Shown here: positions 1-9,963 of the stretch, piece by piece
Layout: every line of letters begins with the position of its first letter
Numbering within the stretch: position 1 is the first letter of the stretch
The notes under the pieces: model-generated
Database searches by the model: none
What the model was told of the DNA's origin: nothing
Seen by the model: only the letters and a program-made list of their open reading frames with translations
Origin: a virus
Lineage: Duplodnaviria > Caudoviricetes
Strand: one strand, 5' to 3'
Length of the DNA: 58,120 nucleotides
IMG/VR virus record: IMGVR_UViG_3300027969_000117
Coordinates: 1 to 58,120 of that record
Program-made: the position numbers and the translations under genes

Positions 1-2
1 GG

Positions 3-116
3 CTTGCTTCCTGCCCCGTGAAGTATGAAGTTGACGATCTTCAAGGGTTTGACGGCGTCAGCGTAGCATTTTATCCACCAACAGAGGACGAAGAAGAGGA
101 GGCTGAAGATGAGTGA
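3..116 (+). CDS. partial hypothetical protein, acidic C-terminus (5' end outside window)
   Basis: open frame from window edge reading ...YPPTEDEEEEAEDE then TGA at 114-116. Confidence 0.5.
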   Translation, partial: LASCPVKYEVDDLQGFDGVSVAFYPPTEDEEEEAEDE

Positions 117-222
117 TGTTATGACGTGGACCGTACTGTCAATGGCCAAGCTGGTCAAGCCCGTGGCTCTGCCTAGCAAGGTTAGTGCTACTATGTCGGG
201 AGGCAAAGTAGTCAAGACCTAG
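109..222 (+). CDS. small hypothetical protein (37 aa)
   Basis: ATG at 109 preceded by GAGGAGG; TAG at 220-222; not in ORF track. Confidence 0.35.
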   Translation: MSDVMTWTVLSMAKLVKPVALPSKVSATMSGGKVVKT

Positions 223-314
223 ACCGTTGTTTTCATACAACAGAGGAATAACCCGCCGGTTGTGCGGGTTTCCCATTTGTGCTATAATACACACATAGAC
301 AACAAAAGGAACTC

Positions 315-464
315 ATGTACGCAATCGTTAACACTACAACCAAAGCTATTACATTTTACAATAATTTTGCCGCCGCTTCCGAAGCGTGTCGCGCTTACAA
401 TGTGCTTCCGGGTCATAACGTATACGTTATTAACTTTGCCGTACCGGAAATCGAACAATTATAA
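315..464 (+). CDS. early hypothetical protein (49 aa, MYAIVNTTTK...)
   Basis: promoter 260-288, SD AAGGA, ATG 315, TAA 462-464; not in ORF track. Confidence 0.7.
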   Translation: MYAIVNTTTKAITFYNNFAAASEACRAYNVLPGHNVYVINFAVPEIEQL

Positions 465-539
465 AATACGTAATAACCCGCCGCAAGCGCGGGTCTTTGT
501 TTTATGTTATAATACACACTTGTTTTAAAAGGAATCAAA

Positions 540-782
540 ATGGGAATTTACGCAAGTACAGTTAACGCATTTGCAGAATCTGCCGCTCGTGCTAAAGTTT
601 ACACTATGCAAAATCGTCTGCAGAGCTACGGACAAACTGCACAGCAGTTAAATGTAAGCACAGCAAAGTTTCGCAGAGATATCGAAGCTAAAAAAGTAAA
701 GTTTATTGCAAAATTAGAAAAAGAACGTGTTGTAAAATTACAACAAGAACTCGCTAGTCTGCAAGCAAAGCATACACAATAA
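540..782 (+). CDS. early hypothetical basic, helical protein
   Basis: own promoter and AAGGA SD; 80 aa ORF. Confidence 0.75.
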   Translation: MGIYASTVNAFAESAARAKVYTMQNRLQSYGQTAQQLNVSTAKFRRDIEAKKVKFIAKLEKERVVKLQQELASLQAKHTQ

Positions 783-860
783 CACTACAGCGCACAGGGT
801 CTTTACTTGACATCTGTGCGTTTTGGAGTTATAATACACACATAGCAACAAAGGAAACAA

Positions 861-1085
861 ATGAAAAACACAATTAAACGCATTAACAAAGCATTTAGCA
901 AACTGTACGCAATGGGAGACAGCGGACTAGATTATTTGGACAAACACTATGCAGTAGATGCGGCTTTAATACAACATTTTTACGACGAGACACTTGACAC
1001 GCTAACTAAAGCACAGTTAAGCGAGCTAGCGGAGCAACTAGAGGAAGTTGCTAGCGATGCGGAATTTGACTTAGAGACAATTTGA
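861..1085 (+). CDS. early hypothetical protein with acidic C-terminal half
   Basis: promoter 807-835, AAGGA SD; no Pro; no TC/CC dinucleotides. Confidence 0.8.
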   Translation: MKNTIKRINKAFSKLYAMGDSGLDYLDKHYAVDAALIQHFYDETLDTLTKAQLSELAEQLEEVASDAEFDLETI

Positions 1086-1131
1086 AGTTATAATAAACAC
1101 TTAAACAAACAACGCAATAGGAGCGAAAACT

Positions 1132-1512
1132 ATGCAAGCAACTACATTTAATGTTAGCGACAAGCTGACACTAGCAAGTACAGACACAGACGAAGACAGC
1201 GTTAGTACAACATACAACTGCAACGTAGAAGTACAACTTGCGGGCGACAGCATATGGGACTGCGAGCTAGAGGCAGTTACAATTACAAGCATACACATTA
1301 GTGAGACAGACTGGGGCGATGGCGACACTAGCATACATATTGCAGTTTGCTATAGTGTAGACGGCTTTGACGATGGCGAAGCACTAGAGGGAAGCTGGCG
1401 TATATACACAGACAGCGGTTTTGAAGCGGCTGTTAGCGAGCTACTAGGCACAGACGTTACATTTACAGAGCAGGGAATGCAAGACGACGGCTACGCGAGC
1501 ATGGAACTGTAA
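1132..1512 (+). CDS. early highly acidic protein (candidate DNA mimic / anti-defence)
   Basis: promoter 1066-1094, SD AGGAGCGAA; many D/E, only one K and one R; no Pro; function is inference. Confidence 0.75.
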   Translation: MQATTFNVSDKLTLASTDTDEDSVSTTYNCNVEVQLAGDSIWDCELEAVTITSIHISETDWGDGDTSIHIAVCYSVDGFDDGEALEGSWRIYTDSGFEAAVSELLGTDVTFTEQGMQDDGYASMEL

Positions 1513-1593
1513 TAGTTGAGTAAAGTGGAAGGGCTTTGGTTGACACTAGAGCCCTTTTGCGTTATAATACACTTACACTAACAAGGAGCACCT

Positions 1594-1773
1594 ATGCTAA
1601 CAACTCAGGAAAAAATCGAGCGTTTACAAATGGCAATCGCTTTGCTACAGGACGCAGACGCAGGCATACAAACTGCCTTAGGGGACACCGAAGCCTGCTA
1701 CGAAATTCACTGTGCTATAGAAAGTCTAATAGACGATGTACAAGACGCAATTAACGCTAAGGAGCAGGCATGA
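1594..1773 (+). CDS. early hypothetical protein (59 aa, MLTTQEKIERLQ...)
   Basis: promoter 1540-1568, SD AAGGAGC, ATGA overlap with next gene; not in ORF track. Confidence 0.75.
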   Translation: MLTTQEKIERLQMAIALLQDADAGIQTALGDTEACYEIHCAIESLIDDVQDAINAKEQA

Positions 1774-2018
1774 TTACCCCAGACACCCTCAAAGAGCTTA
1801 TTTCCTATCATGCCCCTACGCTGACCAAGTTGGCTAGGGAAAGCGGCTACAAGGGCCCTGCGTTTAGCTCGTGTAAGTTCCTGGGCATTACAAACGGGGG
1901 ACAGTTCTGCTACATGGCAGTCTTCTTAGTAGAGGGCGGCACAGACAGCACCAAGTTGTTCTTAACCCACACAGGCAGTAGGGTTAACGTAGACTACCAC
2001 TTGACAGAAGTCTTCTAA
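1770..2018 (+). CDS. early hypothetical protein
   Basis: SD AAGGAGC, coupled ATGA start. Confidence 0.75.
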   Translation: MITPDTLKELISYHAPTLTKLARESGYKGPAFSSCKFLGITNGGQFCYMAVFLVEGGTDSTKLFLTHTGSRVNVDYHLTEVF

Positions 2019-2055
2019 GACGTTATAATACATATATCGCAACAAGGAGCACACT

Positions 2056-2325
2056 ATGTCAGCAGTCAACATCGGCGGTATTACTAAAGTTTACTCGGGC
2101 AAGGCAGGCACCTGTATGTGCGGCTGTGCCGGCAAGTACAGTTACACGTCTCACGGCGCTGTCAACGACAATCCGGGCTATGATGTAAGCGACAGCGTGA
2201 ACGAGCGCTCGGTCAAGATCATAGCAGGCAAAGTGTTGCGTAATCCCAACACTGATCACAGTGACGCAGGTTACGCAGTACTTGAGCAAAATGGTCGGGT
2301 ATTGGTTGTGTTTCTTAAAGACTGA
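2056..2325 (+). CDS. early hypothetical protein with CxCGCxG motif
   Basis: own promoter and SD; YSGKAGTCMCGCAGKY motif. Confidence 0.75.
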   Translation: MSAVNIGGITKVYSGKAGTCMCGCAGKYSYTSHGAVNDNPGYDVSDSVNERSVKIIAGKVLRNPNTDHSDAGYAVLEQNGRVLVVFLKD

Positions 2326-2360
2326 TGTTATAATACATATATCGCAACAAGGAGCAGACA

Positions 2361-2606
2361 ATGAAAGTTAAAGATCTCATCGAGCAGTTAGGCTTCCAGG
2401 ACCCAGAAGCTGAAGTTCACTTTAGCTACAACTATGGCGATCACTGGCGCTCGCAGGTAGCCCCAAAGGTCAGTCAAGTGTTTGAGGGTGTTGTAGAGTT
2501 TAGCGAGTACCACCGCATGGACAAGCTCGTAGACGAAGAAGACACTTACGACGAAGATACTGGCGACTACAAAGCAGACGTTCGCCGTGTTGTTGTTATT
2601 GACTAA
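2361..2606 (+). CDS. early hypothetical protein (MKVKDLIEQL... type)
   Basis: own promoter and SD; N-terminus resembles that of 5719..5943. Confidence 0.78.
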   Translation: MKVKDLIEQLGFQDPEAEVHFSYNYGDHWRSQVAPKVSQVFEGVVEFSEYHRMDKLVDEEDTYDEDTGDYKADVRRVVVID

Positions 2607-2617
2607 AGGAGAAAACT

Positions 2618-2827
2618 ATGTACGCAACGGTAGAAGGTCAGCAAATCAAAGTCGGCGACTATGTCTGCTTCAAGTCAGACGTAGAGCAATGTGGCAAGGT
2701 CGTGGCAATCAAGAAGAGCTACATGGGCACGGCACTCACGCTGGAGAATGAGAGTGGCTTCTCTGGGGGCTACATTGGCGGGCAGACCCGCACAGTTGAA
2801 GAAGCTAGCGACTGCTGGGTTGAATAA
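2618..2827 (+). CDS. early small beta-barrel/SH3-like hypothetical protein
   Basis: AAGGAG SD; IKVGDYV...GKVVAI pattern. Confidence 0.7.
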   Translation: MYATVEGQQIKVGDYVCFKSDVEQCGKVVAIKKSYMGTALTLENESGFSGGYIGGQTRTVEEASDCWVE

Positions 2828-2893
2828 CCCTTCGGTTGACAGGGTTTCCAAAAGACGTTATAATTAAGACTTACACACACTGGAGCACACAAA

Positions 2894-3349
2894 ATGGGTA
2901 CACGAAGCACTATCGCGCTAGAGTTTGCAGACGGCACAGTAGAACAAGTCTACTGTCATTGGGACGGTTACTTGTCGCACAACGGCCATATCCTCGCTAA
3001 ACATTACAGCGATCCGTTCAAATTGCGCGACCTTATTGACTTGGGCGATGTTAGCTCGCTCCGTCCTGAAGTGGGTTCCGGTCATCCCTTTAGTCAGTTT
3101 GACACTACAATGACTACAGAGCAATTTGATGCGCTCTACGGCAATATGTGTACATTCTACGGACGTGACCGTAAAGAGACAGGCACGGGTGCTAAGAAGT
3201 TTGTTGACTTCCAGGACTACTTAGCTCGTCATCAGTATGAGGAATACGAGTATATCCTGCGCAAAGACGGCAACTGGTATGTCAAACAGCACAGCGCAGA
3301 ATACGAGCTGTTGGCGCCAGCATTGGCCAAAGAGCTAGAAACAGCGTGA
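2894..3349 (+). CDS. conserved phage hypothetical protein (MGTRS...YCHWDGY type)
   Basis: motif recognised from large-phage early regions; promoter 2836-2864. Confidence 0.8.
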   Translation: MGTRSTIALEFADGTVEQVYCHWDGYLSHNGHILAKHYSDPFKLRDLIDLGDVSSLRPEVGSGHPFSQFDTTMTTEQFDALYGNMCTFYGRDRKETGTGAKKFVDFQDYLARHQYEEYEYILRKDGNWYVKQHSAEYELLAPALAKELETA

Positions 3350-3402
3350 CAGGGTTCAACAGCAAACGGGCTTCGGCCCTTGACAAACTCAAAGGACAAG
3401 GT

Positions 3403-3618
3403 ATGAAGACAGCAATGGTAACCACTATCCTGCGTCAAGAGATTCAAGTGCCCGATGACTGGGAGCGTGAGGATGTATTGGACTTCTTAGGCGAGTTCCA
3501 ATCGTTCCGTACAGCGTTCCAGGGTGTATCAAACGAAGACCAAACAGCCCGCATCGTTGACTTGTGCGTTGTGGAAGAAGAGATCACAGAGTTAGGCGAT
3601 GTTGCCTACGATAATTAA
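3403..3618 (+). CDS. early hypothetical acidic protein
   Basis: ATG 3403 after AAGGACAAGG (alternative GTG start at 3346). Confidence 0.6.
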   Translation: MKTAMVTTILRQEIQVPDDWEREDVLDFLGEFQSFRTAFQGVSNEDQTARIVDLCVVEEEITELGDVAYDN

Positions 3619-3627
3619 GGAGTTGAT

Positions 3628-3807
3628 ATGAGCGGTATTAAAGATTTGGCTTATGACATTGAGCAACTGTACATCGAAGGACACAGTGCCAAAATGATTT
3701 CGATCATGCTGGACTGCCCAATCGAGCAGGTGTTGGGCTTCTTGGAAGACATTGGTGTGGCAGATGCGCCACAAGAGGAGGTCTATAGTCCATATTACGG
3801 TGCTTGA
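3628..3807 (+). CDS. small hypothetical protein, possible HTH (59 aa, MSGIKDLAYDIEQL...)
   Basis: AAGGAG SD, ATG 3628, TGA 3805-3807; not in ORF track. Confidence 0.65.
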   Translation: MSGIKDLAYDIEQLYIEGHSAKMISIMLDCPIEQVLGFLEDIGVADAPQEEVYSPYYGA

Positions 3808-3908
3808 TTTCGGTTGACAGCCAATCCAAATGGTTGTATAATAGAGTTATGGTTAGGACAGTTCTTAACCATGTTAGTTAACAGACATTCACACACAAGG
3901 AGTTTTAT

Positions 3909-4322
3909 ATGTCTTCATTTTCACATGCTGGTGTTTCTAAACTGGACGGCGAATTCAAAGTTCGCTTCTGTAACGATGCTCTTCGTCAGAAGGTGCTGAT
4001 CAAGAACGGTCACACTGATATTGATATCCTTGAGCTCAAGCACCCTATGACCAAGGTCGAGGCTGTTGAGTTCCTGTTGTCAATTGACTTTGACAATGGC
4101 AATAAGGCTGTCCGTGCCGCACTTGAGCAGGCTTTGGACAAGCGTTCTGCTCCTGAGGCTGCTAATCGCGACAAGCCTAAGAAGGAAGCTAAGAAGCCCA
4201 AGGCTCCTGCTAAGCCTAAGGCCAAGGGTCCAACGATGGATGCTATCAAGGCCAAGGTTGCAGCCAAGACTGCTGTTACCAAAGCTGACGTTACGGCACA
4301 GCTGGAAGACGCTCCGTTCTAA
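3909..4322 (+). CDS. hypothetical protein with Lys/Ala/Pro-rich histone-like tail
   Basis: promoter 3814-3842, AAGGAG SD; KPKKEAKKPKAPAKPKAK segment. Confidence 0.8.
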   Translation: MSSFSHAGVSKLDGEFKVRFCNDALRQKVLIKNGHTDIDILELKHPMTKVEAVEFLLSIDFDNGNKAVRAALEQALDKRSAPEAANRDKPKKEAKKPKAPAKPKAKGPTMDAIKAKVAAKTAVTKADVTAQLEDAPF

Positions 4323-4341
4323 CCCAAAGAGGCCCGAGTGC

Positions 4342-4387
4342 CTCTTTGTAGAGCTCATTAAATAACGTGAGCTCTACAAAGAGCTTT
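4342..4387 (+). terminator. 16 bp perfect hairpin plus T tract, with TAAATA in the loop
   Basis: CTCTTTGTAGAGCTCA / TGAGCTCTACAAAGAG followed by CTTTT. Confidence 0.65.
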
Positions 4388-4397
4388 TAACCAAGGA

Positions 4398-4595
4398 GTG
4401 AATATGAAAGAACTATTAGTCATTGCCGCTGTGATCCTAGTGATCATCTTCGGACCCTTTGCTTCCATTTGGGCGCTGAATGTATTCGGTGACACCTTGT
4501 GGCCGGGCAAGCAGATACCCTACACATTCGAAACTTGGGCGGCCGCTATCATCATGGCAGGCGTCTTCAAGTCTACCATCACTAAGAAGGATTGA
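4398..4595 (+). CDS. small two-TM membrane protein
   Basis: two hydrophobic segments; AAGGAG SD (start 4398 or 4404). Confidence 0.7.
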   Translation: MNMKELLVIAAVILVIIFGPFASIWALNVFGDTLWPGKQIPYTFETWAAAIIMAGVFKSTITKKD

Positions 4596-4598
4596 TCC

Positions 4599-4817
4599 AT
4601 GAGCCGATTACAACTACACGGGCGTCCGTGGGTAGTGTTTGACGCAAAGAACAAGGATCACCGTAAATGGTTTGCGGACTTTAACCAAACGTCCATGTGG
4701 GGTCATTGCCCAGTTCGATTCGTGGTCAACGAGGATCACGGTGACTTGATCACCCAAATCCAACGTGAATTGATTGCCTATTACGTGAATCGAGAGTTTG
4801 GACAAAAAAGTTCTTGA
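4599..4817 (+). CDS. conserved phage hypothetical protein
   Basis: AAGGA SD; FDxxNKDHR...WGHCPVRF pattern. Confidence 0.72.
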   Translation: MSRLQLHGRPWVVFDAKNKDHRKWFADFNQTSMWGHCPVRFVVNEDHGDLITQIQRELIAYYVNREFGQKSS

Positions 4818-4885
4818 CGAGACCGTAATAAGGCTGTAACATAGTATTAACTGTTTAATTACAGTCTTATATAGGAAACTAAAAA

Positions 4886-5158
4886 ATGTTAAACAAAATC
4901 AATTCAGGAACTAAGACACACAAGTTGTTCACAGCCCTACAGTCAGGCGAGCGTTTGACTGCTAGCCAAGCAGAAAAGCGTTTTGGTGTTAAGAACATCA
5001 GCGCCGAAGTAAGCCGCATCCGCCAAGCAGGCTATGCCGTTTACGCCAACAAGCGTACAGCTGGCAACAACGTTGAAGTCACTGAGTATCAGATTGGTAC
5101 ACCAAGCCGCACACTCGTTGCCGCTGGTTACAAGGCTATGGCACTTGGCCTAGTCTAA
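4886..5158 (+). CDS. putative winged helix-turn-helix DNA-binding protein
   Basis: LTASQAEKRFGVKNISAEVSRIRQAGY HTH-like pattern; own promoter 4814-4842. Confidence 0.7.
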   Translation: MLNKINSGTKTHKLFTALQSGERLTASQAEKRFGVKNISAEVSRIRQAGYAVYANKRTAGNNVEVTEYQIGTPSRTLVAAGYKAMALGLV

Positions 5159-5242
5159 GAGTTCGCTCCGAAAGTCCTAGGATTCGCTCCCCTAGGCACC
5201 CTTAGCCCTCGCCTACTGTGAAGTACGCGGGGGCATCTTTTT
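5159..5242 (+). ncRNA. candidate structured 3'-UTR/small RNA ending in an intrinsic terminator
   Basis: TTCGCTCC twice (5162, 5183), the second in the loop of a CCTAGG/CCTAGG stem; GCCCTCGC/GCGGGGGC hairpin then ATCTTTTT. Confidence 0.5.
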
Positions 5243-5300
5243 GGTTGACAACTGGTAAAACCGGTGCTATAATTAACATATAGACAGCAAGGAGTAGAAG

Positions 5301-5441
5301 ATGGAATATACCGTAATTTACCCTAATGGCACTGAGCAGAAGTTCTACATCAGAGCAGTGGCAGAGATGTACGCTATGACCAACAAGGGTCGTGTTGTAG
5401 GAAAGCCACAGTTAGTTTTGGTTGACAAGAAGGCCGCTTGA
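5301..5441 (+). CDS. early hypothetical protein (46 aa, MEYTVIYPNG...)
   Basis: promoter 5245-5273, AAGGAG SD; not in ORF track. Confidence 0.7.
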   Translation: MEYTVIYPNGTEQKFYIRAVAEMYAMTNKGRVVGKPQLVLVDKKAA

Positions 5442-5456
5442 GAGTATAATACACAT

Positions 5457-5660
5457 ATGACAAAACGATATATCTACCTAGAGACTACAGAGTGGCCCGA
5501 AGGCACCGCAACCAACAACGTCTATGTCTTCGATAAGAAGCCCGAAGGACGGACTGCGACCTGTGTGGCGTATGTGCCACAAGGACATACTAAGGTACAG
5601 ATCCTACGCACACCGTTGAAACTCGACCTAAAAGGCAGGACATTCAAAGAGCTTGGTTGA
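5457..5660 (+). CDS. early hypothetical protein, probably leaderless
   Basis: ATG 6 nt after TATAAT 5445-5450; stop is the TGA inside the next TTGACA. Confidence 0.75.
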   Translation: MTKRYIYLETTEWPEGTATNNVYVFDKKPEGRTATCVAYVPQGHTKVQILRTPLKLDLKGRTFKELG

Positions 5661-5718
5661 CAAAGTGGTAAAACCGCGTTATAATACACACATGAAACAA
5701 ACAAAGAAGGAGCGAGAT

Positions 5719-5943
5719 ATGACAGCGATTACAGTTAAAGAGATGATAGAGGCATTGAGCCGTTTGCCCGGAGACGCAGAGTTGGTAGTGACCGAAAGCG
5801 GTTATTACTGCTATGGCGAATTCGCAACGATCATGTTGCCAGAAGCCTACACCATAGAAGGTGTTGGTATGGACGGAGCCGTGGCTGACGAAAATGTTGG
5901 TCGGGTGGTATACCGCATCGGTCACAGTCACCAAAGCTATTAA
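5719..5943 (+). CDS. early hypothetical protein (TVKEMIEAL... type)
   Basis: SD AAGGAGCGAG before ATG 5719 (alternative leaderless ATG at 5692). Confidence 0.72.
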   Translation: MTAITVKEMIEALSRLPGDAELVVTESGYYCYGEFATIMLPEAYTIEGVGMDGAVADENVGRVVYRIGHSHQSY

Positions 5944-5953
5944 GGAGCAAAGC

Positions 5954-6337
5954 ATGCAACTGACAATCCGTAAAACCGTTGAAGTAACCCCATGTACCTA
6001 CAAAGAGATGTGCCGAGCTATCAGCCACGGTAGCTGGGATCCAGGTTGGGATCCTGTAGTCATGCGTCGAATGAAGATGAGCAAGGCCCGGCTCTATGCC
6101 CAACTGTTGGCTGACGAAGTGGGTGCCGCCCACTTCAACAAGACGATGAAGAAGACCTTGAAGAGCGCCGAGAACACCTACTCCGTAGAGAATCCTGAGT
6201 ACTTCCGCTATACTTGGATGTGGGCCCTGCCCAAGAAGCATTGGTTCGCCCTGTGGGCAGATGCCTACGCAGAAGCCGAAGAGAACTACTGGGAAGAGTC
6301 CGATCGCAAGAACTTCCCAGAGGACTTTGAGGAATAA
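5954..6337 (+). CDS. early hypothetical Trp-rich protein
   Basis: SD AAGGAGC before ATG 5954. Confidence 0.7.
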   Translation: MQLTIRKTVEVTPCTYKEMCRAISHGSWDPGWDPVVMRRMKMSKARLYAQLLADEVGAAHFNKTMKKTLKSAENTYSVENPEYFRYTWMWALPKKHWFALWADAYAEAEENYWEESDRKNFPEDFEE

Positions 6338-6460
6338 AATAATGGTTGCCAATGTGTCAACTCCACCACTAGACCCTGCAACTCGCCTGGGTACTTCGTG
6401 GGGTTGACACTGAGGCTTTTTGGTTATATAATACACACATACACTAACAAGGAGCAAACT

Positions 6461-6700
6461 ATGAAACAGAACGAAATCGTAGACTACAAGGGCATTGGCA
6501 CCATCCAGATGACTCTTGATGAGGACGGCAAGAAAGTCTACCTCTATACTCACAATTTCTTCAAGAGGACCAATGATGAAGACACCATCAAGGGTGCCAA
6601 AGAGATGCTGGATTGGGAAGATGGCCAAGCCCGTGAGGTCCGTAATGCTATTAGCATCCTTAGTTCTAGAGGCTACAAAATCTACAGAGAAATCGCTTGA
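6461..6700 (+). CDS. early hypothetical protein
   Basis: promoter 6404-6432, SD AAGGAGC. Confidence 0.72.
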   Translation: MKQNEIVDYKGIGTIQMTLDEDGKKVYLYTHNFFKRTNDEDTIKGAKEMLDWEDGQAREVRNAISILSSRGYKIYREIA

Positions 6701-6752
6701 CAATCTGGTAAAAAGGCCGTATAATACACACTTACACTAACAAGGAGCTGAT

Positions 6753-6971
6753 ATGAAAATTCCAAAACCAGAATCAACTTACAACATCGTAGACAACCCA
6801 ATCCCAAAGAGTGGCATGTGGGCCACCTACAGCCTGGAAGAACTACAGACCCAGGTAGAGAATCTGTCAGGTGCAGAGCGAGCTCTAGCATGGCACTATG
6901 TCATGCTCACACTTAATGCCTGCAACAAGACAGTAGAGGACGAGATCTTGAGCAGAGAAGTATTTGCATAA
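6753..6971 (+). CDS. early hypothetical protein
   Basis: promoter 6697-6725, SD AAGGAGC. Confidence 0.75.
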   Translation: MKIPKPESTYNIVDNPIPKSGMWATYSLEELQTQVENLSGAERALAWHYVMLTLNACNKTVEDEILSREVFA

Positions 6972-7033
6972 TTAGGTTGACCTTTTGGTAAAACCCTGCT
7001 ATAATACACACATACACTAGATAGGAGCGAACA

Positions 7034-7408
7034 ATGGAAGACTTCAAAAGCTGGGAAGAGATGTCCGTAGTCGAGCAGTATGCCTGCCAGTTCTGGGATA
7101 TGTACAAGGATGCCTACGGTGTTCGCCCACGCGGTATTGACACTTCTGCTTGGACCGAAGCTGACTTCGAAGCCGAGTTCGTTAGCCTAAGCAAGGTCAT
7201 TGAGCAGGAAGAGATCGCTCGTAAGGCCTCCGAAGAAAAAGCTGAACACGACTTCGAAATGCGTGTCCTGGGCCTACTACAAACAGGTGCCAAGGATCGT
7301 GCTATGGCGCTCCGTTGGATCCACGAAGCAGAAGGTTCGAATGGTGACGACGAGTTCCTGTGCTATTTGGTAGGCTTGCCCTACGGTTATTTTAGAAAGG
7401 CAGCTTAA
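7034..7408 (+). CDS. conserved phage hypothetical protein (DMYKDAYGVRPR type)
   Basis: promoter 6977-7005, SD AGGAGCGAAC; recognisable motif. Confidence 0.8.
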   Translation: MEDFKSWEEMSVVEQYACQFWDMYKDAYGVRPRGIDTSAWTEADFEAEFVSLSKVIEQEEIARKASEEKAEHDFEMRVLGLLQTGAKDRAMALRWIHEAEGSNGDDEFLCYLVGLPYGYFRKAA

Positions 7409-7599
7409 TGATACATGGTAGCCCATACGATCGCGGCGCGGCCGATAGCTGGTACCGTCGTCCTAAACATCCACACAAGGGCGGCGTTGGTGGAGACTCA
7501 GGCCCCCGCATTGAAGACCTAACAGCAGAGGAGATCGCTCTGTACAACGAGGGCTACGACTGGAACGAACAGTTCGGCGACAAGAAGAACTGGGATTAA
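7408..7599 (+). CDS. conserved phage hypothetical protein (HGSPYDRGAADSWY type)
   Basis: TAATG coupling to upstream gene; recognisable motif. Confidence 0.78.
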   Translation: MIHGSPYDRGAADSWYRRPKHPHKGGVGGDSGPRIEDLTAEEIALYNEGYDWNEQFGDKKNWD

Positions 7600-7664
7600 C
7601 CCGCCGGTTGACAGGGTTACCAAATCCTGTTATAATACATACATCGCAACAAGGAGCACACACA

Positions 7665-7751
7665 ATGGAACAAGCATACATTAACCTAGCAATCATGTTG
7701 AGCCCACTGGCCATCATGCTGGTGGCAATGATCATAGCAGGAGAGTGGTAA
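7665..7751 (+). CDS. 28 aa hydrophobic peptide
   Basis: promoter 7608-7636, SD AAGGAGC; MEQAYINLAIMLSPLAIMLVAMIIAGEW. Confidence 0.6.
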   Translation: MEQAYINLAIMLSPLAIMLVAMIIAGEW

Positions 7752-7870
7752 TGGTACAGTTTATCTTTTGGGTGCTGGTCCTGTGGTTCCTTATCCACTA
7801 CGGCATCCTAAGTGCCTTCTTGTTGTTCTGTTCTAATGTCTTTTTGTTCCTAGCAGGAGTTGTAGCATGA
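7751..7870 (+). CDS. 39 aa hydrophobic membrane peptide
   Basis: TAATG and ATGA coupling on both sides; MVQFIFWVLVLWFL... Confidence 0.6.
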   Translation: MVQFIFWVLVLWFLIHYGILSAFLLFCSNVFLFLAGVVA

Positions 7871-8112
7871 TTGAATTTACCCTAGAAGGTCTTACCCAGC
7901 GTCAGCAGGTCCTAGCAGACATCATGTGGTCGTTGGAAGAATACGATCAAGTCGAACGATTCATTGCTACCTTGCCCGATCGCGAAGCCTGTGAGTGCCA
8001 GACGATCATTGAGATGATGAAGATGGCCGTTGTTGAACAATGCTATGACGGTGTCCAGAAGCTGGATGAAGCCCAGAAGGTGTTGCGAAAATACAACACC
8101 AAAAGAGGTTGA
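7867..8112 (+). CDS. early hypothetical protein
   Basis: AGGAG SD, coupled start. Confidence 0.72.
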   Translation: MIEFTLEGLTQRQQVLADIMWSLEEYDQVERFIATLPDREACECQTIIEMMKMAVVEQCYDGVQKLDEAQKVLRKYNTKRG

Positions 8113-8168
8113 CAGTCTGGTAAAACCACGCTATAATACATACTTAAACAACACACAGGAGCGAACCT

Positions 8169-8513
8169 ATGCAAGTTACTACACAAGAGCAAGTCAACGC
8201 AATCGTCAAAGAAGCACAAGCCGCCGCATACAAGGCCGCAATGGAGTTCTTCTATGACAAGCTGAACGGGCGCGATCAGTTCGCATGTGGCTTTGCCTGG
8301 ACCAACATCTACAAGGTCAAAGGCAACACCAAGCTGGGCAAGATGCTCAAAGCGGCGGGCGTCAAGCAGGACTACACCAAAGCGTTCAGCATCTGGAACC
8401 CATCGGGCATGCCAGTTCAGAACGTAGACACACTGGAGGCAGGTGCCCAAGCGGCCGCAGAGGTGTTTCGCAAGCATGGCTTCGAAGCCTACGCAGGCTC
8501 AAGACTCGATTGA
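8169..8513 (+). CDS. conserved phage hypothetical protein (CGFAW...SRLD type)
   Basis: promoter 8109-8137, SD AGGAGCGAAC; recognisable motif. Confidence 0.8.
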   Translation: MQVTTQEQVNAIVKEAQAAAYKAAMEFFYDKLNGRDQFACGFAWTNIYKVKGNTKLGKMLKAAGVKQDYTKAFSIWNPSGMPVQNVDTLEAGAQAAAEVFRKHGFEAYAGSRLD

Positions 8514-8574
8514 CACCAGCGCCGCAAGGCGCTATAATTACACACTTCAACAAACGTTTTATAAGGACACACAA

Positions 8575-9447
8575 ATGGCTACAGCAAAGAGCAAGACAGC
8601 ATCCAAGGGCACAACCGTTCTGGAATTTGATACCGATAAGATCAAGGCACGTGAAGCAGAAGTTGCTCGCGAGTCTGACGAGCAGATCTATGAGCGTTTG
8701 GCTGAACGCTTTGATATCCTCCATGAGATGACCATTGCGGTTAAGAAGGGCGATGTACGTGCTATGATTGTATCGGGCCCTCCAGGTGTGGGCAAGAGCC
8801 ACGGTGTTGAGCAGGTACTGAGCAAGGACGATCTGTTTGATACGCTGGGCAACCGTAAGCCACGCTATGAGATTGTCAAGGGTGCCATGTCTAGCATTGG
8901 ACTCTACGCCAAGTTGTACGAATACTCCGACGCTAAGAATGTTATCGTGTTCGACGACTGCGACTCAATCCTTATGGAAGACTTGAGCTTGAACATTCTC
9001 AAGGGTGCGCTTGACTCTAGCCCAAAGCGAGTTATCCAGTGGAACACGGACTCACGTTTGCTACGCTCAGAAGGCATTCCAGACAAGTTTGAGTTCAAGG
9101 GTGCGGCTATTTTTATTACCAACATCAAGTTTGAACACGTTAAGAGCAAGCGCCTCCGTGATCACTTGGATGCTTTGGAAAGCCGTTGCCACTACATTGA
9201 TCTGCAAATGGATACAGAGCGTGAGAAGATCTTGCGTATCAAGCAGGTGGTTAAGGAAGCAGACATGCTGGCCCGCTATGAGTTTACAGACGCAGTCAAG
9301 GACGAGCTTGTGGCATTCATTGACACTAACAAGAGCAAGTTGCGTGAGCTGAGTCTGCGTATGGTACTGAAGATTGCGGACTTGCGTAAGAGCTTTCCTA
9401 ACTCTTGGGTGGCTATGGCACGTACTACCTGTATGAAGCGTGTATGA
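8575..9447 (+). CDS. AAA+ family ATPase
   Basis: Walker A GPPGVGKS, Walker B VIVFDDCD, sensor FITN, ALESR arginine finger; start after AAGGA. Confidence 0.88.
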   Translation: MATAKSKTASKGTTVLEFDTDKIKAREAEVARESDEQIYERLAERFDILHEMTIAVKKGDVRAMIVSGPPGVGKSHGVEQVLSKDDLFDTLGNRKPRYEIVKGAMSSIGLYAKLYEYSDAKNVIVFDDCDSILMEDLSLNILKGALDSSPKRVIQWNTDSRLLRSEGIPDKFEFKGAAIFITNIKFEHVKSKRLRDHLDALESRCHYIDLQMDTEREKILRIKQVVKEADMLARYEFTDAVKDELVAFIDTNKSKLRELSLRMVLKIADLRKSFPNSWVAMARTTCMKRV

Positions 9448-9686
9448 TTACCAAGGTAGTACTCCTAACAGCACTGGGCCTAGTGCTCAGTGCACTGGAC
9501 ATAGAAGCCTGGGCCAGCTGGAGTATCTGTGGATGCTTCCTGGCTTGGGGCTGGCACATGCGAGCAGAAGGCTATGATGATGCTACTGAAACAGCACAGG
9601 CCGTATGGCAGGCAGCACAGCGAGCAGTGGAAGAAGTAAGAGCACACAACAACAAGCAACAAGGACAGGACACAGGCAATGACTAA
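9444..9686 (+). CDS. membrane protein
   Basis: ATGA overlap; two hydrophobic N-terminal segments. Confidence 0.6.
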   Translation: MITKVVLLTALGLVLSALDIEAWASWSICGCFLAWGWHMRAEGYDDATETAQAVWQAAQRAVEEVRAHNNKQQGQDTGND

Positions 9687-9963
9687 GCACATCAACTCTA
9701 CATGTACCTACATTGGGCACACAGGTACACAGGCTACATGCTGTGAGCGTACTGTACTAGGCTCTAGCTACTGTGCTACACACTACCCTATGATCTACGC
9801 TAGCGGCACAAAGCTAGGGCGTAGACTCAAGGATGCGGCTCGGGCAGAAGCCATACGCCAGCTGGTGTCAGACTTCAACGATGCGGTTGCTCAGTTAGAA
9901 GCAGAAGGCTACGATGTCTACGGTGATAGTGAGCGGGTAGATGGTGAGATGGACTTTACCTGA
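9679..9963 (+). CDS. hypothetical protein with C-C-C-H zinc-binding-like motif
   Basis: CTYIG...C...SYCATH. Confidence 0.65.
   Translation: MTKHINSTCTYIGHTGTQATCCERTVLGSSYCATHYPMIYASGTKLGRRLKDAARAEAIRQLVSDFNDAVAQLEAEGYDVYGDSERVDGEMDFT

Follow-up and report, generated by a model that had tools for sequence, protein, structure and literature searches.

What keeps a virus from placing a cytosine after a pyrimidine anywhere within one of its early transcription units? The question is raised by positions 815-1552, plus strand, of a 58,120-base virus contig from IMG/VR, its completeness rated at 16%, which was analysed here over its full length (hereinafter, the window), where two short open reading frames (ORFs), ORF1 and ORF2 (the latter representing what we denote family A), together with the non-coding DNA around them, form an island devoid of TC and CC dinucleotides. 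Throughout, YC stands for TC or CC, RC for C preceded by A or G, and GR for GA or GG. The source is an uncultured giant T4-like lake phage: the window encodes gp32, UvsX, a gp41-type helicase, a gp61-type primase, the large terminase (gp17), the tail sheath protein (gp18), gp15 and a dNMP kinase, that is, a gene set of a giant T4-type myovirus, and the habitat of this phage group is lake water. Bases 1-8,600 make up the early region, with approximately 18 short cassettes, each with a near-consensus TTGACA-17-TATAAT promoter. The ban on YC within the island is held by selection in dozens of diverged relatives, which points to a factor attacking or binding nucleic acid at TC or CC.

The last YC before the island is TC 813-814 and the next one after it is CC 1552-1553; the 738 nucleotides in between contain 138 C, of which 80 follow A and 58 follow G, with no TC and no CC. 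The first-pass annotation of this DNA had given the same boundaries, which the computed count reproduces to the base, along with an estimate of about 138 C, all after A or G. It had further described the exclusion as strand-specific and as extending across both ORFs and the leader, which holds as well, the same strand being rich in GA (61) and GG (36). Across the window there are 5,932 YC, approximately one per 9.8 nucleotides, and the runner-up YC-free gap is 100 nucleotides long; the longest GR-free gap is 137 nucleotides. In sliding windows over the early region around the island, the fraction of C that follows a pyrimidine (YC/C) is mostly about 0.3-0.5, in agreement with the earlier statement that the neighbouring cassettes use TC and CC freely, with the exception of the cassette immediately upstream (an early ORF of 80 amino acids, 540-782, plus strand), where YC/C falls to 0.14-0.25, a partial depletion that we call the halo. 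Where the early region ends, at 9451-9900, the plus strand shows a second, much weaker dip (0.19).

The absence of YC goes beyond what codon and amino acid composition produce. By our own arithmetic, the chance of 138 consecutive C avoiding the YC context is approximately 0.62^138, or about 2e-29. Redrawing synonymous codons with the codon usage of 19 neighbouring early ORFs yields an expectation of 43.1 YC (standard deviation 5.4), and the minimum among 20,000 such draws for the same proteins is 22, against zero observed; even when the island's own synonymous codons are permuted, 4.4 YC arise on average at codon junctions, and the probability of obtaining none is 0.001. All 18 C among the 131 non-coding nucleotides of the island are RC, and the ban thus spans the leader, the spacer, all three codon phases and the codon junctions, so that it acts on nucleic acid rather than on protein or tRNA. 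The two proteins contain no Pro and their Ser codons are limited to AGC (13) and AGT (4), as had been noticed initially. Given these codon nulls, the conservation across homologs and the 98-fold excess over the mean gap in a related genome (see below), an origin by chance, base composition or amino acid composition alone is refuted and retains a vanishingly small probability in our assessment. For comparison, in 59 of the 169 kb of phage T4, no YC-free stretch longer than 111 nucleotides was found on either strand.

The composition of the island also indicates how C was displaced. The content of A is 35.7%, against 29.4% in the background, and that of T 20.9%, against 22.4%, with 18.6% C and 24.8% G; the C lost from the island is replaced by A, not by T, and the C that remains is kept in the RC context, RC not being reduced (odds of 1.64 for AC and 1.68 for GC), while TT and CT are not avoided. 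Thr is encoded by 16 ACA and 3 ACT codons, and Ala by 9 GCA, 6 GCG and 3 GCT. The choice of ACA over ACT and the replacement of C by A argue for selection and against C-to-T erosion.

The ban is conserved in a large part of the family. We identified 116 relatives of ORF2 in viral contigs, and the locus counts given here (loci of relatives are designated by L-numbers) rest on 80 of these. In 44 of the 80 loci, the homolog has no YC and lies inside a YC-free stretch of 352-2,078 nucleotides, the shortest of these stretches being limited by the end of the locus; four homologs contain 1-4 YC; and 32, which form a low-GC, marine-looking group, contain a normal 8-21. Over the 947 ORFs of these loci, the distribution of coding-strand YC/C is bimodal: 106 ORFs have a value of zero and some 80 have values between 0 and 0.2, while the main mode is at 0.3-0.5. 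The tree of 31 distinct YC-free homologs spans 6.6 substitutions per site and a minimum of 1,693 changes, including 835 at third codon positions, and some 23-24% of random or synonymous changes in these genes would create a YC; taken together, the sequence comparisons indicate that the ban is maintained by selection. ORF2 belongs to a large metagenomic family; among its 2,643 database relatives, 117 of the best 120 lack Pro, and in the HDGPW motif Pro is kept in the marine group and replaced in the YC-free group. Some of the marine low-GC homologs (L040, L050, L059, L062, L065) carry long N- or C-terminal extensions, reaching up to 380 amino acids in total.

In a relative of 353,123 bases and 98% completeness (G001), the only YC-free stretch longer than 160 nucleotides on either strand is one of 922 nucleotides around the ORF2 homolog, 98 times the mean gap; for the next most extreme two-letter motif, the corresponding value is 27. 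The halo in this genome is restricted to the two flanking ORFs, with YC/C of 2/26 and 5/44. Across the relatives, the islands take in transcription units as a whole, leaders and spacers included; L055 has a single island of 2,078 nucleotides with five cassettes, each behind a promoter of its own, and even the spacer hairpins there are built without YC. At the left boundaries, the last YC is found in the upstream terminator, in the promoter spacer or in upstream coding sequence; in none of the boundaries listed does it fall between the -10 box and the start codon. One of the L055 island genes has an inverted homolog in L052, and this homolog is YC-free on its own coding (minus) strand; the ban follows gene orientation, that is, the coding strand. 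Island length and gene content vary among relatives, with the family A gene the constant: at least 10 families of small proteins without a label occur in islands and the ORF2 family is always inside, and the family encoded at 1594-1773 of the window, outside the island there, is found in-island in L007, L029, L030, L031 and L038. TC is avoided at least as strongly as CC. In 41 low-YC ORFs, 5 of the 48 residual TC belong to TCA, compared to 1,595 of 4,494 TC in normal ORFs (Fisher p = 1e-4); the residual YC of the low-YC ORFs show no significant deficit of CCA. A sub-group of relatives (L043 3365-3436, L051 2115-2165, L083 2340-2410) has a -35 box of TTGCAA or TTTACA instead of TTGACA, and some promoter-leader stretches, including leaders in L043 and L051, lack GA, GG, TC and CC altogether; other leaders are not free of all four dinucleotides.

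In the window, the boundaries of the island coincide with predicted signals of transcription, all on the plus strand. The terminator hairpin of the upstream cassette (781-830; the fold of 775-830 has -21.0 kcal/mol, z -5.2) carries the last YC, TC 813-814, in its 3' arm and overlaps the -35 box of promoter P1 (807-835), which a consensus scan identified as TTGACA-17-TATAAT with 12 of 12 consensus positions. ORF1 (861-1085, 74 amino acids) follows, and promoter P2 (1066-1094, TTGACT-17-TATAAT, 11 of 12) is located inside the end of ORF1, just upstream of ORF2 (1132-1512, 126 amino acids); both ORFs are short and have good ribosome sites. The cassette's own terminator hairpin (1520-1565; the fold of 1512-1566 has -23.7 kcal/mol, z -5.7) contains the first YC, CC 1552-1553, within the base-paired 3' arm; the -35 box of the next promoter (1540-1568, consensus scan) lies in the hairpin loop. 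As the YC boundaries fall in the 3' arms of terminators, any YC of the predicted transcript is confined to a stem.

The protein products offer few clues. ORF1 belongs to no Pfam or PHROG family and has relatives in three viral contigs, where they contain a few YC; neither ORF2 nor the scanned representatives of the other island proteins match a Pfam or PHROG family. The AlphaFold model of ORF2, built from 45 sequences and confident (predicted local distance difference test score, pLDDT, 87.3; predicted template modelling score, pTM, 0.83), shows a four-stranded antiparallel sheet followed by short helices. A Foldseek search of the PDB gave nothing at E<=0.001 (the best hit, E 0.27, has an unrelated fold), the best match in a VIA-wide structure search (Z 5.4) is likewise an unrelated fold, the ESM Atlas returned no usable match, and in BFVD only uncharacterised proteins were retrieved, the best being M1HTR4 (E 8e-4). 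A weak resemblance to coat proteins of single-stranded RNA phages (Z about 4) was not trusted. The first-pass annotation had likened ORF2 to DNA-mimic inhibitors; the strong acidity behind this comparison is real (27 Asp and Glu, 2 Lys and Arg), but no fold match supports a mimic, and DNA mimicry is a guess from the negative charge.

What kind of agent would make every YC in such a message intolerable? It must recognise either pyrimidine-C in the RNA-like strand or G-purine in the template, single sites must matter to it, and it must be relevant to one product per genome. The reading that we rank first, tentatively, is a single-strand YC-specific endoribonuclease that is escaped by this mRNA. 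We infer action at the RNA level, with a nuclease as the agent, because RNA alone exists solely as the constrained strand and because the constraint starts and ends with the transcript, paired YC being tolerated: the ban begins in the upstream terminator or promoter spacer and extends as far as the terminator of the cassette itself, and the only transcript YC in the window is base-paired. Under this reading, the cassette would be a self-immunised early transcription unit, the mRNA of which, from the start site to the terminator stem, would have been purged of every single-stranded UC and CC and would thereby withstand an endoribonuclease with pyrimidine-C steps in single-stranded RNA as its cleavage sites, UCA being the most sensitive context. 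Such an enzyme could be a host abortive-infection, toxin or CRISPR-accessory RNase or a phage shut-off enzyme. Dinucleotide preferences (UC, C-C) are a property of HEPN RNases such as some Cas13b and Csx1 enzymes. The uncuttable message would allow ORF2 still to be made while other messages are degraded, and ORF2 itself would either neutralise the RNase or supply a function that cannot wait, a role as tentative as the RNase reading of which it is a part. One cassette would suffice because the message of the antidote must survive the poison, and the presence of one island per genome with a weak halo fits a single product needed under attack. A UC/CC-specific RNase was among the agents named in the first-pass annotation and is the simplest of them, if unproven; the broader suggestion made there, a selected counter-defence cassette, stands as far as selection at the nucleic acid level for freedom from the motif is concerned, and the agents named for it fare unevenly. 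More generally, the island might have been shaped by an undescribed immune effector, present in freshwater bacteria and directed against pyrimidine-C steps in single-stranded nucleic acid, with family A as its inhibitor, encoded by a message that the effector cannot touch; we regard this proposition as speculative.

The closest parallel at the level of the message is MazF, an mRNA interferase to which ACA-less mRNAs are resistant: in both cases, the message can be translated without any nuclease word, and the constraint is on the RNA strand in all codon phases. The differences are that the island is natural, phage-borne and conserved, and that its word is a degenerate dinucleotide, the avoidance of which costs Pro and four Ser codons. 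As for the biology, the nearest precedent is T4 Dmd, a small early protein of a T4-type phage that counters a host endoribonuclease, RNase LS (RnlA/LsoA); according to PMC3014915, RNase LS restricts T4 and cuts single-stranded RNA mostly 3' of pyrimidines. Dmd has no sequence or fold relation to ORF2, and no description of a site-free design of dmd was found in open-access papers and bioRxiv, the literature covered here.

Several observations weigh against an RNase. No Y-C-specific RNase is named in the PHROG scans of 297 G001 ORFs, nor in the Pfam or NCBIfam scans of this genome. The 32 marine homologs with normal YC show that family A is not tied to the ban. The residual YC in low-YC neighbour genes is not more base-paired than RC, with no positive sign of structural shielding: the difference between YC and RC in the unpaired state is -0.087±0.041 in low-YC ORFs and -0.067±0.011 in normal genes. 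TCA, the most avoided context, is preferred by APOBEC3A. It is also the preferred site of an enzyme acting on single-stranded DNA, T4 endonuclease IV (EndoIV, DenB; PMC1635256), and purified RnlA is broad in specificity (PMC8266594). Among the points in favour of an RNase, G001 encodes about 32 tRNA genes for nearly all amino acids and a permuted (two-piece) transfer-messenger RNA (tmRNA) (L089 18125 to L090 6330; L088 4882-5318; L103 7481-7765), which hints that attack at the level of RNA is of consequence for these phages.

The strand rule and the extent of the transcription unit would fit equally well if the relevant sites were GA and GG on the template, where a phage-made guanine modification, or a lesion, glycosylase or ADP-ribosylation of host origin directed at G, would stall the host RNA polymerase, so that the clean template of this cassette is transcribed first; we consider this unlikely. 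Phage DpdA enzymes are reported to act at GA and GGC, so that their motif on the template mirrors the ban, and a DpdA-type G modification had been proposed in the first-pass annotation. Of the preQ0 pathway, G001 clearly encodes GTP cyclohydrolase I (FolE), QueD and a QueE-like radical-SAM enzyme, along with a weak QueC-like PP-loop protein (an N-terminal match of 25-30 bits), and FolE or QueD is present in four of five related records; a purine-type phosphoribosyltransferase and a small HhH-GPD protein are encoded beside FolE. These preQ0-type genes are scattered in G001 (L091 17661-18164, L094 8273-9013, L094 13483-14343, L090 10930-11859, L094 9748-11129) and could represent a deazapurine route without a transglycosylase. 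No transglycosylase was detected: the tRNA-guanine transglycosylase (TGT) domain PF01702 has no match in any of the five related records, two of which are at least 98% complete, whereas controls match in 14 of 14 genomes, and the NCBIfam TGT and DpdA models match none of 108 G001 ORFs, although a very divergent DpdA might escape such scans. The 367-amino-acid ORF adjoining FolE (P0001), tried as a candidate TGT, is not TGT-like by Pfam or NCBIfam. Furthermore, the early promoters of the window all keep TTGACA, with GA on the plus strand, and GGAG-type ribosome sites; the approximately 18 other early cassettes, which have the same promoters, do not avoid the motif and retain normal GR on the template, which the polymerase evidently reads; and another relative, G002, has the same preQ0 genes without a full island. 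Also, 7-deazaguanine is not known to block RNA polymerase. ADP-ribosylation of the DarT2 type, also put forward initially, fails for a simpler reason, as its motif, TNTC, cannot explain the ban on CC. Rather improbable, in our view, is an attack on the displaced coding strand in transcription bubbles or an R-loop, possibly a T4-type R-loop origin, by a C-directed enzyme, either an EndoIV-like nuclease or an APOBEC-like deaminase coupled to uracil excision. T4 EndoIV is an attractive model, being a T4-family, single-strand-specific, dC-directed enzyme that cuts single-stranded DNA 5' of dC with a preference for TCA, the most avoided context in halo genes, and the single island in the 353-kb genome, in a T4-like phage, would be in keeping with a unique cis element, for instance an origin. 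The same source (PMC1635256) indicates that EndoIV acts on DNA and spares single-stranded RNA, and that it also cuts after purines, ACA only 3.6-fold less than TCA, so that the 138 RC sites of the island would remain targets. A DenB homolog was not detected at E<=1 in the five records by a single-sequence search with no positive control genome, nicking of the non-template strand is not expected to halt expression, the exposure would be the same for all transcribed genes, the cumulative GC skew of G001 follows gene orientation with no origin signal at the island, and islands vary in length and gene content around a constant family A gene. The deaminase variants are contradicted by codon use: erosion should have left YT replacements and an excess of T-ending codons, neither of which is observed, ACA instead prevailing over ACT, and the YC-specific deaminase of the first-pass annotation, if it acted by miscoding, would spare third-position C, NNC to NNU being synonymous, yet NTC and NCC codons are both absent.

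To load, Rho requires several YC spread across tens of nucleotides. A transcript without YC would offer Rho no loading site and would escape premature termination, and the match of the motif is exact, the primary binding site clefts of Rho binding 5'-YC on nascent single-stranded RNA (PMC12360218); Rho is nearly universal, YC in a terminator stem would be invisible to it, and the T4 gene goF is annotated as 'overcomes rho mutant effects'. Since the function of a rut site depends on numerous YC, Rho does not predict that a translated unit of 0.7 kb should be barred from containing even one: selection against the last YC should be negligible, but 44 of the 80 loci are at exactly zero and 117 of the 120 best relatives lack Pro. 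In addition, short ORFs with good ribosome sites should be shielded by translation, C in the RC context is not reduced, and there is no reason why one of some 18 similar cassettes alone would need protection, all of which makes evasion of Rho improbable. With psbA absent from the five records, nothing points to a cyanobacterial host, for which Rho would be excluded; the permuted tmRNA and the 5-aminolevulinate synthase encoded in G001 (L104 5350-6579) may hint at an alphaproteobacterial host, given the distributions of these features. The last explanation to be weighed is proofing against sunlight damage, with one strand kept free of hot spots of oxidation or of (6-4) photoproducts. Of all base contexts, oxidation occurs most readily at the 5' G of GG and GA steps, and TC and CC are the main (6-4) photoproduct sites; the phages inhabit lake water, and G001 encodes UvsE, two DenV-like proteins with a weak third match, and a superoxide dismutase-like protein (light-damage genes at L092 313-1335, L091 10904-11449, L102 7859-8446, L092 1665-2222). 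With respect to ultraviolet light, however, the wrong strand is protected, as the template keeps about 97 TC and CC (the complement of 61 GA and 36 GG), and TT and CT are not avoided; with respect to oxidation, the benefit per site in a 0.7-kb unit of a 350-kb genome would be tiny and would not single out this gene, and the avoidance of TC, which corresponds to GA on the template, is no weaker than that of CC, which corresponds to GG there, contrary to the order expected for oxidation. We therefore regard damage-proofing as highly improbable.

Avoidance of motifs by phages is well known for restriction sites, and T7 Ocr and T4 Arn are first-expressed anti-restriction mimics; the island resembles these cases in encoding an early, very acidic small protein and in the apparent shaping of a gene by avoidance of a host weapon. 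It differs from restriction avoidance, which involves longer, mostly palindromic words on both strands, in that the ban is total, strand-specific and extends over a whole transcription unit, and ORF2 shows no fold match to mimics, a class that also includes ArdA. No earlier description of such a ban was found in the literature covered. It deprives the proteins of all Pro and of four Ser codons and has nevertheless been held through more than 1600 substitutions. The finding defines precisely what an unnamed factor would recognise, be it YC in the coding strand or GR in the template, and family A is a likely antagonist or beneficiary of this factor. If the same logic holds generally, 'forbidden-word islands' in viral metagenomes could be used to pair the specificities of defence nucleases with counter-defence genes.

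Neither near nor protein-level searches of 50,697 isolated phage records produced a match to the region, to ORF2 or to a marine homolog. Pieces of the early region are present in contigs of the metatranscriptome runs X2, X9, X23 and X24, which say nothing on transcript level, ends or cleavage; one example is an identical piece in X2 (862-1012). In one contig of run X2, position 800 is joined to 1561 with 28 other letters in between, so that a close relative lacks the whole ORF1-ORF2 cassette at this place, and the cassette therefore behaves as a movable module. In bases 1-8600 of the window and in L055 1860-3700, the loop or arm of the terminator hairpins contains the -35 box (TTGACA) that belongs to the following promoter, as at 1520-1568; repeated at each junction, this hairpin-promoter module may drive the shuffling of cassettes.

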